64,000 nucleotides of DNA, taken from IMG/VR virus record IMGVR_UViG_3300045125_000034, positions 32,001-96,000 of that record. The stretch is one strand, 5' to 3'. This document shows positions 3,620-33,796 of the stretch, piece after piece. Position 1 is the stretch's first letter. Each line of letters opens with the position of its first letter. This stretch comes from a virus. The notes below the pieces were generated by a model. The model was not told where the DNA came from. It was given only the letters and a program-made list of their open reading frames with translations, and did not search any database. The translations under genes were made by a program, and so were the position numbers.

Positions 3620-3895
3620 GATGATTGCTGCAATGACACGCGACGAATACAAGTCTGAACTTCGCAAGGGTATCTGTGAGATCACCTTCACCAAGAAGGA
3701 TGGCACAGAGAGAGTCATGCGTTGCACCCTCGCGCAGGCGCACATGCCCGTGCGCGAGTACGAGAAGGACGCTCACGGAGCCGAAGAGCCCACGCAAGGT
3801 CAACACCAACACTCTTGCGGTTTTGGGATTTGGACAAGGCGGCGTGGAGAGCATTCAACTTGGACAGCGTGAAACATTTCAAGCCCGCTGTCTGA
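3620..3895 (+). CDS. WYL_2/DUF2693-like SH3 beta-barrel protein
   Basis: MTRDEYKSELRKGICEITFTKKDGTERVMRCTL ... (shift) VWDLDKAAWRAFNLDSV. Confidence 0.7.
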
Positions 3896-3901
3896 CCCCC
3901 T

Positions 3902-3975
3902 GTTCCCGTAACTCAGTTGGATAGAGTAGTTGCCTTCTAAGCAACAAGTCGCAGGTTCAAGTCCTGCCGGGAACA
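3902..3975 (+). tRNA. tRNA-Arg(TCT)
   Basis: Acceptor GTTCCCG/CGGGAAC, D stem ACTC/GAGT, anticodon arm GTTGC-CT TCT AA-GCAAC, T arm GCAGG-TTCAAGT-CCTGC. Confidence 0.95.
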
Positions 3976-3990
3976 GCTTACAATTTAATA

Positions 3991-4251
3991 TGCTCGTGGT
4001 AACTCAATTGGTAGAGTAGCCGACTTCAATAGGAGCGGTTTTGTAGGAATACAAAACATGAAACTCGTCAAATTCGGTGGACGGTTGAAAGACCCAACGC
4101 CGAGCCAAGCCCAAAAGGGAAGGTGTAGAGACTTGACGGCGGGCATTCAGAACGGATGAAGGCAAAGTCCAGACCACGAACTGTAAGGGCGGCGTAAGCC
4201 GAAGTGGTAAGTTAATCGGTGAGGTTGTGGGTTCAAGTCCCACCCAGGCAG
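3991..4251 (+). tRNA. tRNA-Lys(TTT) interrupted by a group I intron (exons about 3991-4026 and 4212-4251)
   Basis: 5' half has D arm ACTC-AATTGGTA-GAGT and GCCGA-CTT; 3' half has TTAA-TCGGT and T arm GTGGG-TTCAAGT-CCCAC. Joined loop is CT TTT AA. The 5' acceptor strand is imperfect, probably from read errors. Confidence 0.8.
4027..4211 (+). mobile_element. Group I intron (IC3-like, 185 nt, no ORF)
   Basis: P/Q/R/S-like cores AAATTCGGTGGA, AACGCCGAGCCAAG, GGTGTAGAGACTTGACGG, GAAGGCAAAGTCC; P1 helix CCG(A)CUU|C-AAUA-GGAGCGG puts a U.G pair at the 5' splice site; ends in omega-G at 4211. Confidence 0.88.
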
Positions 4252-4291
4252 CTTAGGGAGCACTAAATAGATTAGAGGAGTGTGCTAATCC

Positions 4292-4648
4292 ATGAACAAA
4301 TGCAAACATTGCAACAAGGAATTTAAATCTCATCCATCCAAACAATCAAAGAAAAAAGCAGAAGAATTATATGTGGTTCTTGTGCAGTTTCTAAAGAAGA
4401 TGGAAGACAAAAATTGAGTTTGTTGAATTATTAGGTGGTAAATGCCAAAGATGCGGGTTTAAAGGTCATCCGGGTGTGTTTCATTTTCACCATAAAGACC
4501 CATCACAAAAATCCCACGAATTAAATGGAAACGGTTTGTTGACAAAGAAAGATATAACGAACTTTCAAAGTGCGAATTATTGTGTGCTAACTGCCATCAA
4601 ATAGAACATTCAAACACAGATTTGATTAAAAGTTTTGGTCTGCTATAA
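4292..4648 (+). CDS. Free-standing HNH endonuclease (frameshifted; absent from the ORF track)
   Basis: MNKCKHC... ICGSC ... LLGGKCQRCG...FHFHHKDPSQK ... ELSKCELLCANCHQIEH; AT-rich; preceded by TAAATA (4264) and RBS GAGGAG. Confidence 0.8.
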
Positions 4649-6133: not shown

Positions 6134-6136
6134 CTT

Positions 6137-6221
6137 GGGCAGATGGCAGAGTGGTCTAATGCAGCGGTCTACTAAACCGCAGAGGTTAACGCCTCCGAGG
6201 GTTCGAATCCTTCTCTGCCCG
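6137..6221 (+). tRNA. tRNA-Ser (anticodon reads ACT; GCT if a base-call error)
   Basis: GGGCAGA/TCTGCCC, GCGGT-CT ACT AA-ACCGC, long variable arm, G73. Confidence 0.88.
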
Positions 6222-6246
6222 CTTGGAATGCTAAATATGATAGCCA

Positions 6247-6609
6247 TGCACATATCATTCTTCCTACAACTACAATCTCAACTACGAGTCCTTCATTGGC
6301 AAACCAAGTCGTATGCCGAGCTACAAGGCTCTAGGTAAACTATACGATGCTTTGGACGGTTTGATTGACACCTATGTTGAGACCCATGCAGGAAAGTATG
6401 GCAACACCTTGGGCAATCCAAACTTCTCATTCAGCGTCAGCAACTACAAGGACTCCAATTCGTTGGGTGTCATCACCACGGCTATTGAGTTCCTGTCTAT
6501 TGAGTTGCCCAAGAAGTTGAATCCTAACACCGACACGGATCTACTAAACATTCGTGACGAGATGCTTGGTGCGCTCAATCAGACAAAATATCTGCTTCGT
6601 CTAGAATAG
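6247..6609 (+). CDS. Ferritin/Dps-like four-helix protein (DUF5856-like)
   Basis: QLRVLHWQTKSYAE-(H)KALGKLYDALDGLIDTYVE...LLNIRDEM; late-type TAAATA at 6232. Confidence 0.7.
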   Translation, partial: CTYHSSYNYNLNYESFIGKPSRMPSYKALGKLYDALDGLIDTYVETHAGKYGNTLGNPNFSFSVSNYKDSNSLGVITTAIEFLSIELPKKLNPNTDTDLLNIRDEMLGALNQTKYLLRLE

Positions 6610-7033: not shown

Positions 7034-8089
7034 ATGAAGATTGAAGAAGATGTCAAGTTGGATTTCGCTGATGTCCTGATTCGTCCTAAGCGAAGCAACC
7101 TTGAGAGCCGCAGCAAGGTTGACCTAAACCGAACATTCAAGTTCACTTTGCCAAACGGCGAAGAGACATGGACAGGCATTCCTCTCGTAGCGGCTAACAT
7201 GGATTCAACAGGGACCATCCCTATGGCTAAAGCACTATCCAAGTGGGAGGCTATGGGTGCGGTTCATAAGCATGTTCCGATTCGTGAGTGGAAGGAAGCC
7301 AACATTCACGATTGGTTTCCCGCCGCCATCTCATGCAACATCATCTATACGATGGGCATGGGAGACAACAACAGCAACGCCAAGGAGATGTTGAAGGCTC
7401 AAGAGGTGCTTGATACGCACCCACAGATCAAGTTCATCTGTATTGATGTTGCTAACGGATACACACAGAAGTTCGTCAACTTCGTTAGCAACATTCGTGG
7501 GTTCTTCCCGAAGCACATCATCATTGCAGGTAATGTAGTCACGCGAGGAGATGACGGAGGCACTACTTCTCGCAGGTGCTAACATCGTCAAGGTTGGTAT
7601 TGGGCACGGCTCAGTATGCACTACACGCAAGGTCGCGGGCGTGGGGTATCCACAACTCTCTGCAATCATGGAGTGTGCTGATGCTGCTCATGGTCTTGGC
7701 GGTTTCGTCATGGCTGATGGTGGCTGCACTTGTCCGGGTGACATCGCAAAGGCATACGGTGCGGGTGCTGACTTTGTGATGATCGGCGGTATGCTCTGCG
7801 GAAGCGGACGAGGCAGCAGGAGAGATCACAGAGAACGGCAAGGAGTTCTATGGCATGAGTTCTGCTGATGCTATGCAAAAGTATCTCAGGCGGTGTTGCT
7901 GCCTACCGTGCACCAGAGGGCAAGAAGGTTTATGTCAAGGCTAGTGGTCCTGCCGATGCAACGATTCGACAGATACTTGGTGGAGTTCGTTCTGCTTGCA
8001 CTTATGTCGGTGCAGAGAGGTTGAAAGACCTTCCGAAATGTACAACATTCGTGAGGGTTAACCGGCAACTCAACAACATCTTCACCTAA
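7034..8089 (+). CDS. guaC: GMP reductase (frameshifted)
   Basis: [65 protein letters not shown]. Confidence 0.95.
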
Positions 8090-8105
8090 CTACTAATGGC
8101 ACTAT

Positions 8106-8177
8106 GCGGATGTAACTCAATGGCAGAGTGTTGGCCTTCCATGCCAAATGTTGAGGGTTCGACTCCCTTCATCCGCT
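8106..8177 (+). tRNA. tRNA-Gly(TCC)
   Basis: GCGGATG/CATCCGC, U73, TTGGC-CT TCC AT-GCCAA. Confidence 0.95.
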
Positions 8178-8180
8178 TTA

Positions 8181-8255
<75 letters not shown>

Positions 8256-8651
8256 TATAGGAGGTTTTATGGGCGGTAAACATTCAGCAGGTAAGGGAGA
8301 CACCTACAGGAAGGTGGACTACGGTTTATGGTCTAAAAATTGGGATGCGATTTTCCAAAAGAAGACCAAGAAGAAGAGTGTAAAACTTGCACCCAAGCGA
8401 AAGCCGTGATTATACTAAACACTATATCACAACTAGAGTCGCCGTGATGTATGGCGGGTCGCTTTGGAGAAAGAGATGGTCATAGAAGATTTCGCCACAC
8501 ACGCAAACATCGGAGAGTTTGCCCGTAGAGGCTGCACGGATCGTAGAGTGGGAGACTGAGGGTAAGTTCGGAACGACACAAGCGTTTGAAGAGATCAAGA
8601 AGGCTTATCTTGCTTTGAAGCAGGCTAACGCAGAGATCAAGGGACTAACAA

Positions 8652-9273
8652 ATGGATGAAGAGATGGAGACATACAGCAGAGAACTAATCACCGAGATAT
8701 CATTGTCTCGCGTCTTCTCTCATGTTGAGGAAGAGACCGTTCGCTTATCCTCACCGCGTTTCGTGGTAGCAACTCTCTGCAAGTAAACAGAACGCAGAAC
8801 AAGAAACTTGAGAACGACATTCGCTCCGCAGGGTTTGGCTTTGAGAAGGTTGTTGGAACCTACGAAGAAGACCTTGGCGATGGCAAGAAGCGTAGAGTAA
8901 CCGAAGAGTCTTTCATGATTATCGGTGACGATGACTCTGATGCAAAGGTGGGTGCTATCAAGGGTTTCGCTAAGAAGATGGGAGCAAAGTACGAGCAGGA
9001 CGCTATCTTCTTCAAGTCGCCAAAGTCCCCACAGGGCTTCGTGATTGGAACCAAAGCAGATGCATGGCACGTTGCATGGGCAAGGAAGAGTCTGTTGGTG
9101 AGTTCAAGCCCAACCGACTAAGTGGTATCTACACAGCATTGAAGACCAAGAACAAGGAACCCATTCGCGGTTTCAAGTTTGAGGAGTTTCATCACCCAAT
9201 GACCGTGACTCAGATTTGGGTGCGTCATCTCATGAAGAAGAAAGGTATAGACAATGGTGAACAAGTTTCGTGA
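8652..9273 (+). CDS. Conserved phage hypothetical protein (frameshifted)
   Basis: ..ELITE-ISLSRLLSHVE..ILTAFRGSNS..EESFMIIG..KYEQDAIFFK; pattern familiar from large-phage proteins. Confidence 0.5.
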
Positions 9274-9463
9274 ACTACGCCGCCGTCGCAAGCGGAAGTA
9301 TGAAGCCCGCAAGTTGAAGCGGCAGGAAGGTCTACTCAACGCGAAGAAGGAAGCTCTTCGTAAGTTGGAAGACCGTGGCATTCTTCCCACTTGGGTTAAG
9401 AAGAAGAAGTTCTCTGCCGACCGAGAACCGACCGCATACGAGAAGGCTAGATACAAGGCTTGA
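9254..9463 (+). CDS. Small basic hypothetical protein
   Basis: Intact Arg/Lys-rich 69-aa ORF. Confidence 0.5.
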   Translation: MVNKFRELRRRRKRKYEARKLKRQEGLLNAKKEALRKLEDRGILPTWVKKKKFSADREPTAYEKARYKA

Positions 9464-9473
9464 TCGTAAGCAT

Positions 9474-9545
9474 TCCCGAGTAGCACAGCGGTAGTGCAAT
9501 CGGCTGTTAACCGATGGGTCGTTGGTTCAAATCCAACCTTGGGAG
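9474..9545 (+). tRNA. tRNA-Asn(GTT)
   Basis: TCCCGAG/CTTGGGA, G73, ATCGG-CT GTT AA-CCGAT. Confidence 0.95.
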
Positions 9546-9573
9546 TTGACAATACTTGGTTAGATGCTATACT
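9546..9573 (+). promoter_or_regulatory. sigma70-type promoter for the tRNA-Leu pair
   Basis: TTGACA-N16-TATACT with TGn. Confidence 0.75.
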
Positions 9574-9581
9574 ACCTGTAT

Positions 9582-9655
9582 GGGATCGTAGACCAACGGC
9601 AGAGTCAACGGATTTAAAAATCCGTAAAGTATGGGTTCGAATCCCATCGGTCCTA
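9582..9655 (+). tRNA. tRNA-Leu(TAA), short variable loop
   Basis: GGGATCG/CGGTCCT, A73, ACGGA-TT TAA AA(A)-TCCGT; the extra A is probably a homopolymer error. Confidence 0.8.
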
Positions 9656-9659
9656 TAAT

Positions 9660-11217: not shown

Positions 11218-12070
11218 ATGCTAAGACCGAGGAGTTTGGTCATGGCGGGCGTTCTAACGCTCGCAGTCGTGCCACAGCGGGGCAAGTGTCCTGCCAATCA
11301 TCAGCAAATTGCGATTGCAATGGCTACAGCCAACAGGTGGTAGAGAAGGTCGTTGGGTCCAACGCAGTAGTTCACTACGACGGAAAGCCTCTTGGTTCTG
11401 GTATTGCATATCGCAAGAATGGAAAGTTGTATGTGCTATCAGCAGCACATGTGATAGAAGACGAAGATGCAGTCAAGAGCAGATATTGGTTTTGCCACAA
11501 AACTTCGTGGAGATTAAACGATACCCATCACTAATTTGTCCTGAAGATGAGCCAAGTCAGGACAAAACATGGGAACCAAGAAGATAGAGGTAACTTTGTT
11601 CTGTAGGAGAGATGGAATCTCCAATTACCAAAGAGACATGCAAGATGGTTTTAACTTGACCCCGAGTATGACTTGTGCATCTTGGAAGTTGAACAATCCA
11701 AACCATTAACTCCACTTGTTAGAGGATATGTGTTTTGACTACACCACTCCACGCTTGGGTGTGCCTGTATACATCATGGGCAATCCTTCAGCGGACTACA
11801 TGGGACTATCACCCGAGGTATCATCGGCAACAATCATAGGAGCCGTGGATCATTGTCTGAACATCTGCCTTTCTTCTACCAAACAGATGCGGACGCTGCT
11901 CCAGCTCTTCAGGCGGCGGTCTCTATCGTGCGGACACGGAGGCGCGTGTGTAGGCGTAGTTGTTATGTTGAACTGTTTAAATCGGCAGGTGTACAGCGTA
12001 CCTGTTAATGTTCCTACAAGAGACATTACTCAGGCACAATCAGATAGAATTGTTGCCTCCGAGTGCTTGA
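11218..12070 (+). CDS. Trypsin-like serine protease with a hydrophobic N-terminus (frameshifted)
   Basis: GSG..YVLSAAHV (catalytic His), EYDLCILEV (Asp), VYIMGNPS, QTDADAAP(G)SSGGG (Ser). Confidence 0.75.
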
Positions 12071-12094
12071 CTTACATTTACTGTGTGATATAAT
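12067..12094 (+). promoter_or_regulatory. sigma70-type promoter of the replication operon
   Basis: TTGACT-N16-TATAAT with TGn, followed by RBS GGAGG. Confidence 0.75.
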
Positions 12095-32356: not shown

Positions 32357-33796
32357 ATGGTAGCCGATAGAACCGAACTAATCATCCTCCGTTCCCTACT
32401 CCACAACGAAGAGTACGGTCGGAAGGTTCTCCCCTTTCTTCAGCCCGAGTACTTCACCGAACGCGACGAGCGTGTGGTGTTTGATGCTGTTGCCGAGTTC
32501 TTCAGCAAGTACAACAAGCCCCCGAGTGTGGAGACTCTGCTGATTGACTTGGGCAAGAAGGATGACCTAAACGAAGCCGAGTTCAAGAGCGTACAGACTG
32601 TCATTCGCTCCTTGGCAGACAACACTACAGTAGATGATAAGTGGCTCCTTGATACCACAGAGACCTTCTGTAAGGACAAGGCTGTGTATAACGCCATCAT
32701 GGAGTCCATTCAGATCATTGATGGCAAGAGCCAAAGGACTGCCAATGCCATCCCCGAGGTGCTGTCCAAGGCTCTGTCGGTGTCGTTTGATACCCACATC
32801 GGTCACGACTTTATTGAGGATGCCGAGAAGCGATACGACTTCTACCACACCGTAGAGAAGCGTATTCCGTTTGATCTTGAACTGATGAACAAGATCACTA
32901 ACAACGGAACCCCTACAAGACCCTGAATGTGTGTCTCGCGGGCACGGGCGTGGGCAAGTCTCTGTTCCTCTGCCACCATGCTGCCAACTGCCTGATGCAG
33001 AGTAAGAATGTGTTGTACATCACCTGCGAGATGGCAGAGGAGCGTATTGCAGAACGCATTGACGCTAACCTCATGGACATCACTCCTAGACGATCTGAAG
33101 TGCCTGCCCAAGGACATCTATGACCGCAAGATCAAGCGTATCATGGATCAGACTACAGGCAAACTCATTGTCAAGGAGTACCCGACAGCCACAGCCAATG
33201 TGATGCATTTCAAGCATCTGTTGGACGAACTGCGGCTCAAGCGAAACTTCAAGCCCGAGATCGTGTTCATTGACTACCTGAATATCTGTGCGTCAAGCCG
33301 TTTCAAGGCGGGAGCAAATGTCAACTCCTACACCTATGTGAAGGCTATCGCAGAAGAACTCCGTGGTCTAGCCGTGGAGACAGGCATCCCGATCTTCACC
33401 GCTACACAGACCAATCGTCAGGGCTTCTCAAGCACCGATGTTGAACTGACTGACACAAGCGAGTCTTTCGGTCTACCGCAGACTGCAGACTTCATGTTTG
33501 CCTTGGTCTCCACCGAGGAACTTGATGGTCTTGGTCAGATCATGGTGAAGCAGTTGAAGAACCGTTATGCGGACCCTGCCTCTAACCGACGCTTCGTTAT
33601 TGGTATTGACCGCAGCAAGATGAAGTTGTTTGATCTTGACCCCTCTGCACAGAATAACATTATCCTAGAGGGTGGGCGTGGAGGCAAGGAGGAAGAGGAA
33701 GAGGACAACGGAGGTTTCAAGACTTTCCGTGAGAGGATGAATGACAAGTTCGACAAAAAGAAGCGGATTTCGCGGATTGGTCTTGACAGCCGATAA
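32357..33796 (+). CDS. gp41: Replicative DNA helicase
   Basis: LAGTGVGKS, EMAEERIAERIDAN, IDYLNIC, ATQTNR, TSESFGLP, KQLKNRY. Confidence 0.96.

Follow-up and report, generated by a model that had tools for sequence, protein, structure and literature searches.

A tRNA-Lys(UUU) gene in the tRNA array of an uncultured phage is interrupted by 185 nt that very probably constitute a compact, ORF-less, IC3-like group I intron belonging to a mobile family. The DNA analysed is a 64-kb stretch (referred to throughout as the window) that corresponds to bases 32001-96000 of a 145-kb IMG/VR record, whose completeness estimate is 67%.

Location, junction and anticodon of the split gene

Two tRNA halves lie between tRNA-Arg(UCU) and tRNA-Gln in the tRNA array of the window and are exactly 185 nt apart (4027-4211), the length given in a preliminary description of this DNA that was made from its letters alone. 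Deletion of 4027-4211 yields the anticodon loop C-U-UUU-A-A, also as described there, and ARAGORN calls the spliced sequence tRNA-Lys(ttt). Because the intron starts with C and ends with G within a run of T, its boundaries are unambiguous and place it at 34/35.

The preliminary description had suggested a comparison with intron-less alleles, and this comparison upheld both the identity of the tRNA and the insertion site. A scan with the predicted spliced sequence identified uninterrupted tRNA-Lys(ttt) genes in seven contigs (L004-L010), all of which read CTTTTAA and have D and anticodon arms identical to the window exons. The same split gene, with clean acceptor stems, was found in L002 and L003 by an exact-match scan with the exon-intron junction. 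The order Arg(tct)-Lys-Gln-Ala-Ser-Tyr-Ser(act) is common to the syntenic intron-plus and intron-less phages, and in L005 and L008 the intron-less Lys gene follows tRNA-Arg(tct), the slot occupied by the split Lys gene in L002, L003 and the window. Read against these syntenic alleles, which fix the junction, the window tRNA is Lys(UUU) split at 34/35.

The syntenic phages also share a conserved tRNA-Ser(ACU) with a wobble A (window, 6137-6222; L002, 5808-5893; L003, 371-456; L005, 7879-7964). Bacteria normally read AGY serine codons with a GCU anticodon.

Table 1. Coordinates of the split tRNA-Lys(UUU) gene, its intron and associated features (window positions unless a contig is named).
Feature	Position	Strand	Remarks
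tRNA-Arg(UCU)	3901..3977	+	upstream neighbour of the split tRNA-Lys; called by ARAGORN; anchors the syntenic order
tRNA-Lys(UUU) 5' exon	3992..4026	+	acceptor 5' strand, D arm, anticodon-stem 5' strand, C32 U33 U34
tRNA-Lys(UUU) 3' exon	4212..4250	+	U35 U36 A37 A38, anticodon-stem 3' strand, variable loop, T arm, acceptor 3' strand
T arm of split tRNA-Lys	4227-4243	+	within the 3' exon
Discriminator A of split tRNA-Lys	4250	+	assigned by homology
Anticodon stem of tRNA-Lys precursor	4019-4023 / 4216-4220		
Group I intron	4027..4211	+	185 nt, no ORF; RF00028 match and covariation
P1	4024-4027/4032-4035		splice-site pair U4026.G4033
P2	4038-4045/4050-4057		loop GGAA
P3	4064-4069/4138-4143		
P4	4074-4079/4098-4103		
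P5	4083-4086/4091-4094		loop GAAA
P6	4104-4106/4122-4124		
P6a	4110-4112/4117-4119		
P7	4128,4130-4133/4166-4170		A4129 bulged
P8	4144-4148/4154-4158		
P9	4173-4177/4204-4208		
P9a	4181-4182/4187-4188		
P9b	4190-4193/4198-4201		loop GUAA
Terminal G of intron	4211		
Conserved hairpin (ATAGATTAG / CTAATCYAT)	4267..4294	+	Shine-Dalgarno AGGAG in the loop, part of the HNH start codon in the stem
Free-standing HNH endonuclease gene	4292..4648	+	directly 3' of the split tRNA; phrog_2255, E 1.3e-19
Intron PD-(D/E)XK ORF	L282:4869-5357	minus	PF11645; upstream of the P7 core

Group I identity and fold

By sequence and structure the insert is a group I intron, as the preliminary description had recognized from its core. 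The covariance model RF00028, a check that it had named, matched the insert over the full model (1-253) with 48.4 bits (E 2.6e-11) when 551 nt (3850-4400) were searched, and a search of the whole 145-kb record returned the same single match (E 1.6e-12). This score is borderline, falling 1.6 bits short of the curated gathering score of 50 bits. The gathering score is passed by 6 of 13 homologues in relatives, at 50.6-69.3 bits (L264, 69.3; L274, 64.3; L279, 59.4; L265, 52.0; L013, 51.3; L002, 50.6).

We also drew by hand a structure comprising P1-P9, with the P3/P7 pseudoknot, and the tRNA cloverleaf, and projected it on 16 phage pre-tRNA-Lys sequences (alignment A2). Paired cells made up 96.2% of this alignment, compared to 33.5-42.6% when the partners were slid by 1-3 columns. 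Both-sided change was present at 39 of the 76 pairs, and none of 500 shuffles matched any of the observed measures. Covarying pairs were found in P2 (7/8), P3 (6/6), P5 (4/4) and P9b (4/4), as well as in the acceptor stem (7/7) and T stem (4/5) of the tRNA. P7 and P9 were invariant and P4 varied on one side at two of its six pairs, with no both-sided change in these helices; across the 16 rows P4 and P7 were 100% paired, P8 94.9% and the anticodon stem 92.5%. Every helix of the P3-P4-P6-P7-P8 core, with its P3/P7 pseudoknot, is present in the window intron, and a free-energy fold alone recovers P2, part of P3, P4, P5, P6, P6a, P8, P9 and P9b. The L2, L5 and L9b loops are GNRA loops, and there is no P5abc. 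The similarity of the intron to known members and this minimal architecture point to an IC3-like class.

Alternatively, the insert might not splice, or might resemble a ribozyme by chance, and simply inactivate the tRNA gene; a score under the Rfam gathering threshold would be in keeping with this. However, the E-values of 1e-11 to 1e-12, the extensive compensatory change in every variable helix and the strict constancy of the catalytic core among divergent phages all argue against it. Furthermore, the flanking exons are canonical tRNA-Lys in 15 of the 16 family members, which implies selection on the spliced product. We therefore regard an inert insert as highly improbable.

The ends of the intron conform to the group I assignment. 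The P1 U.G pair that had been proposed for the 5' splice site, U4026.G4033, coincides with the conserved P1 U-G of RF00028; the pair is U.G in 15 of the 16 homologues and U-A in the other. The terminal G, also noted earlier, is G4211, and its column is invariant (16/16). These two positions bear on the alternative that the gene is a tRNA-Asn(GUU), with a 5' exon ending at U33 and a 3' exon beginning at G4211, an artificial junction that ARAGORN also accepts. Such a gene would require the intron to end at A4210 and to have a splice site other than the U.G pair, contradicting G4211 and U4026.G4033, which are conserved in RF00028 and in the homologues; the preliminary description had already objected to the non-G intron end. 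In addition, the intron-less alleles in the equal genomic slot read Lys, and an intact tRNA-Asn(gtt), which had likewise been pointed out, was located by ARAGORN at 9473-9546. The comparative data (intron-less alleles, terminal G and P1 U.G) thus refute the Asn reading, the probability of which is close to nil.

We infer that the window intron, a split tRNA-Lys(UUU) being the preferred reading, is capable of splicing itself. P10 is essentially absent, with one possible pair (U4212-A4031), and having at most one such pair, the exons must rely on the anticodon stem for their alignment. This stem would keep the exons together in the precursor while P1 forms between C32-U33-U34 and the internal guide GGAG (4032-4035), with U34.G4033 marking the 5' splice site. 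The bond after U4026 would be attacked by an external guanosine docked in P7; the terminal G4211 would then occupy the guanosine site, allowing the freed 3'-OH of U34 to attack after G4211. Ligation of the exons would produce the loop CUUUUAA. Splicing of the Anabaena tRNA-Leu intron depends on the anticodon stem, according to work cited in a review (Zaug et al. 1993, cited in PMC3984707).

Apparent damage in the window copy

Compared to L003, the window exons contain three indels (+G at 3996, +G at 4221 and loss of an A near 4247), whereas the intron contains none. The extra G at 3996 makes the 5' exon one base longer than in relatives. When spliced, the window tRNA was modelled by ARAGORN with an 8-bp acceptor that includes two mismatches, a 4-bp T stem and a 6-nt variable loop, although its anticodon loop and its D, anticodon and T arms are sound; the other 15 rows of the alignment show canonical tRNA-Lys pairing. 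Since the spliced window tRNA is not canonical, this copy may be non-functional even if the family is functional. An 11-nt insertion in the 3' acceptor was considered and rejected, as the alignment with L003 is collinear with small indels.

The HNH endonuclease gene that follows the split tRNA is also disrupted in the window. An A is missing from each of the A-runs after 4351, 4392 and 4543, which spreads the gene over three frames, and no intact HNH frame was found in the window. Only three ORFs of at least 250 aa are present in the 64 kb. The 352-aa ORF of L005 (dehydrogenase-like, phrog_9582) corresponds to window positions 7034-7582, 7551-7868 and 7868-8089 in three frames, and ORFs of 211, 288 and 120 aa in relatives are likewise split. 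Stop-codon recoding was rejected as the cause of the few long ORFs, because the relatives show that the splitting is by frameshift. Alignment of the window with a relative contained 11 gap openings over 852 aligned bases, a frequency at which zero indels in a 185-nt intron is unremarkable.

Other observations concern the same record. Window genes fragmented by frameshifts lie at 7034-8089, 8915-9273, 11286-12093, 6135-6609 and 33008-33796, and a DnaB-like helicase ORF spans only profile positions 410-603 of 621. The tRNA that ARAGORN calls at 9581-9656 has an 'anticodon' of four bases (taaa) in an 8-nt loop. This tRNA adjoins tRNA-Asn, as does a normal tRNA-Leu(taa) in L005 (3000-3073), and its extra base is probably another indel rather than the mark of a frameshift-suppressor tRNA.

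Taken at face value, the record resembles an unpolished assembly rich in indels, or else a decaying genome, and the tRNA exons and HNH gene of the window look damaged by sequencing error or by decay. If decay were responsible, the window copy would be a pseudogene, a dead tRNA-Lys with an intact-looking intron beside a dead HNH gene. The spoiled acceptor stem and lengthened variable loop in a family whose 15 other members are canonical, the HNH gene in three frames and the fragmentation of further genes (the 352-, 211-, 288- and 120-aa ORFs) would all fit with decay, and the exon indels lie outside homopolymers. On the other hand, all three HNH frameshifts are single-A losses in A-runs, a signature of homopolymer sequencing error, and undoing the three exon indels restores perfect acceptor pairing (GCUCUGG with CCAGAGC). 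Essentially every gene compared is fragmented, which is likelier in an unpolished assembly than in a phage recovered as a 145-kb contig. Decay is the less likely explanation for the record as a whole, and either cause may underlie the exon indels.

Detection by standard tools

The preliminary description had supposed that standard tRNA callers could miss the gene, and this held for default settings. Neither ARAGORN without its intron mode nor the Rfam tRNA model found a gene at the split tRNA-Lys locus, and a default Rfam scan at gathering scores gave no group I match there because the RF00028 score of the intron lies below the gathering value. The supposition did not extend to the intron mode of ARAGORN, which calls the clean relatives L002, L003, L014, L017 and L018 as tRNA-Lys(ttt) i(35,183-185), although it did not call the split tRNA-Lys of the window. 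The intron mode also mislabels family members as Stop(tta), Ala(ggc), Val(aac) and Ser(cga), since it does not apply group I splice rules; we reassigned these by hand from the positions of the U.G pair and the terminal G. Inventories of phage tRNAs are therefore too low, since the gene escapes default ARAGORN, the Rfam tRNA model and RF00028 at its gathering score.

Family and distribution

Scans with the core motif and the 3' junction identified the tRNA-Lys(UUU) group I intron in at least 25 viral contigs, the window included, and the intron is thus not rare in metagenomic phages. The preliminary description had called the insertion site unusual. Measured against a 2014 review, in which all phage introns seen to date were in protein-coding genes (PMC3984707), this judgement stands, with the frequency found here as a qualification. 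Insertion is at 34/35 in the window and most relatives, and is shifted 3' by one base, to 35/36 (between U35 and U36), in L015, L020 and L016. In L015 and L020 the internal guide GGAA replaces GGAG, so that the splice-site wobble is kept despite the one-base shift. These three contigs provide an example of one-base splice-site migration within a UUU anticodon. A much longer tRNA-Lys(UUU) intron, in L273 and L282, contains an ORF for a 163-aa PD-(D/E)XK endonuclease (PF11645, E 6.9e-18).

A 15-nt core motif (GTGTAGAGACTWGAC) was present in at least 120 bacterial contigs, mostly in tRNA-Leu(UAA) introns, so that the window intron has a core sequence in common with the classical introns of tRNA-Leu(UAA), tRNA(CAU) and tRNA-Arg(CCU). 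Among the bacterial matches listed, the hosts read by ARAGORN were Leu(UAA) (59), tRNA(CAU) (13), Leu(CAA) (4) and Arg(CCU) (3), and no Lys(UUU) host was found among the 121 bacterial motif regions examined. The motif GTGTAGAGACTTGAC was present in more than 120 viral contigs, and the intron mode of ARAGORN placed about half of these in tRNA genes: among the matches listed, Leu(taa) accounted for 30, Arg(tct) for 8, Lys(ttt) for 5 and Thr(tgt) for 3, besides others. Core hosts in IMG/VR, again as read by ARAGORN among the matches listed, were Leu(UAA), Arg(UCU), Lys(UUU), Thr(UGU), Ser(UGA), Pro(UGG), Ala(UGC) and Asn(GUU), with the Lys cases and one Asn case checked by hand. The remaining viral contigs with the motif probably have it in protein genes, such as the split capsid gene of HTVC120P.

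On a tree of the short core the window intron falls within a supported clade of 12-13 phage Lys introns, and tRNA introns from phages are intermixed with bacterial ones. The remaining Lys introns occupy other parts of the tree, which would mean either several lineages or poor tree resolution. Megablast with 2 kb around the site gave no match among GenBank phages, and a distant-mode search of the same phages gave nothing beyond sequences resembling tRNA-Arg and short matches to the intron core, including one in HTVC120P.

Several related loci were seen alongside the family. Two introns with the same core split other tRNAs at 35/36, a viral tRNA-Asn(GUU) in L052 and a tRNA-Lys(CUU) in L154, a Pyrinomonadaceae MAG, and both were accordingly rejected as Lys(UUU) members. 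In L013 (minus strand, within 9360-9581) the P6a segment GCCCGAAA is tandemly duplicated, an insertion in a peripheral loop. Pelagibacter phage HTVC120P (L011; MH598807.1, 19615-19807) has a related core between two CDSs annotated 'capsid protein', which is probably a group I intron of the major capsid gene that has escaped annotation, and the uncultured phage KT997847 (L012) has the same capsid arrangement. A tmRNA is also present in five of the split-tRNA-Lys contigs (L015, 6627-6971; L264, 160-391; L274, 10710-11016; L014, 3451-3721; L017, 2577-2779), and four of these tmRNAs are of the permuted (two-piece) type.

HNH neighbour and mobility

The HNH ORF matches the HNH endonuclease family phrog_2255 (E 1.3e-19) and scores below the cut-off of PF01844 (18.8 vs. 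21.4 bits). Its orthologue is intact in L003 (119 aa), L014 and L019, with ORFs of 119-122 aa. A hairpin over the ribosome-binding site of the gene is common to the window and these three contigs, folding at -3.7 to -13.8 kcal/mol with an invariant stem, and is a possible translational brake on the endonuclease. In L269 an HNH gene lies just upstream of the split tRNA-Lys, and L279 has HNH paralogues on both sides of it (7924-8283 and 8619-8957). The two L279 paralogues are diverged, being 71% and 48% identical to the L003 protein.

Of the 25 intron-plus contigs, 7 (three lineages) have an HNH gene beside the split tRNA, vs. 1 of 117 intron-less viral tRNA-Lys(UUU) loci (Fisher p 1.7e-5; by lineage, p 0.002). 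In L368, the sole intron-less control with a nearby HNH gene, the gene lies between tRNA-Asn and tRNA-Gly and does not abut tRNA-Lys. Within one synteny three states were found: neither element in L005, the intron only in L002, and both intron and HNH gene in L003 and the window. The window intron is 97.8% identical to that of L002 and 96.8% to that of L003, compared to 72-78% for the flanks, and the tRNA-Arg beside it has 16 mismatches in about 76 nt. High intron identity between diverged flanks fits with either recent spread or strong constraint.

The HNH adjacency suggests collaborative homing of the tRNA-Lys intron. The window intron belongs to a mobile family distributed over the tRNA-Lys(UUU) genes of many uncultured phages; a PD-(D/E)XK gene is present in some copies, and others, including that of the window, adjoin a free-standing HNH gene. 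We propose tentatively, and with somewhat less than even confidence, that the ORF-less intron and the adjoining HNH gene constitute a homing cassette of two parts whose target is a tRNA gene. In co-infecting phages the HNH enzyme would cleave intron-less tRNA-Lys(UUU) genes within the DNA of the anticodon arm, and the intron would shield its own carrier by splitting the target site. Repair would then bring the intron, together with adjacent exon sequence and in some cases the HNH gene, into the competing genome.

Discussion

The intron described here is a bacterial-tRNA-type group I intron for which both the host gene and the kind of genome are new, and tRNA-Lys(UUU) thereby joins the tRNAs that host group I introns. 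A 2025 article on phage introns (PMC11878797) still frames them as a protein-gene matter, and our search of the open literature turned up no phage tRNA gene reported to contain a group I intron. The tRNA-Lys intron is widespread in uncultured phages, and the endonuclease is a plausible candidate partner. If the proposed homing cassette exists, it would overturn the view of phage introns as confined to protein-coding genes. Together with the variants that have PD-(D/E)XK genes in the intron and those shifted by one base, it would make phage tRNA arrays a major, so far unrecognised arena of group I intron mobility. The series of no intron, intron only and intron plus HNH gene within one synteny, with an internal endonuclease elsewhere, is a ready-made test system for how ORF-less introns and free-standing endonucleases combine.

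The preliminary description had also mentioned tRNA-Lys(UUU) as the target of PrrC-type anticodon nucleases, a link that is background only. RNA-ligase families, a sign of counter-measures to anticodon nucleases, were not found in the 67%-complete record; the PF09511 search was silent in the control genomes as well and therefore carries no information.

Among known systems, the closest resemblance in insertion site is to the tRNA-Leu(UAA) introns (Kuhsel et al. 1990, as cited in PMC3984707). The window intron is like these in its insertion at 34/35 after U, small size, lack of an ORF, weak P10 and core sequence. However, its host gene is tRNA-Lys(UUU) in a phage genome, its guide pairs with CUU rather than with the Leu loop, and the short-core tree groups the phage Lys introns in a supported clade of their own.

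The introns of Azoarcus tRNA-Ile(CAU) and Agrobacterium tRNA-Arg(CCU) reportedly belong to IC3. The window intron has the same minimal architecture of about 200 nt (P2, P5, P6, P8 and P9, with no P5abc) and the same GNRA loops on P2 and P9, and its P4-P6-P7 core is, we presume, near-identical to the Azoarcus sequence. Introns of these types, in tRNA(CAU) and Arg(CCU), also carried the core motif in our bacterial scan. In contrast, the window intron interrupts another tRNA at another loop position, and its P9 region is a three-way junction with two GNRA hairpins.

The Synechocystis tRNA-fMet intron, in the account cited by the review, encodes I-Ssp6803I (Bonocora and Shub 2001, cited in PMC3984707). 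It parallels the introns of L273 and L282, which are likewise anticodon-loop group I introns with a PD-(D/E)XK endonuclease, whereas the window intron has no ORF and its candidate endonuclease is an HNH protein encoded outside the intron. Collaborative homing has been described for the psbA intron of cyanophage S-PM2 with the free-standing F-CphI (Zeng, Bonocora and Shub 2009, as presented in PMC3984707, Fig. 5b) and for the nrdA intron of phage Aeh1 with MobE (PMC3984707, Fig. 5b). The tRNA-Lys introns show the same three-state synteny pattern (neither, intron only, both), although their putative target is a tRNA gene rather than a protein gene and the enzyme is of the HNH type.

Finally, the arrangement in the window, a free-standing endonuclease gene inside a phage tRNA array, is also that of T4 SegB. 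SegB is reportedly a homing endonuclease whose free-standing gene lies among the tRNA genes of T4, and it is said to bias the inheritance of the T4 tRNA region. It also features in PMC13096335. Unlike the candidate endonuclease described here, SegB is a GIY-YIG enzyme and involves no intron.
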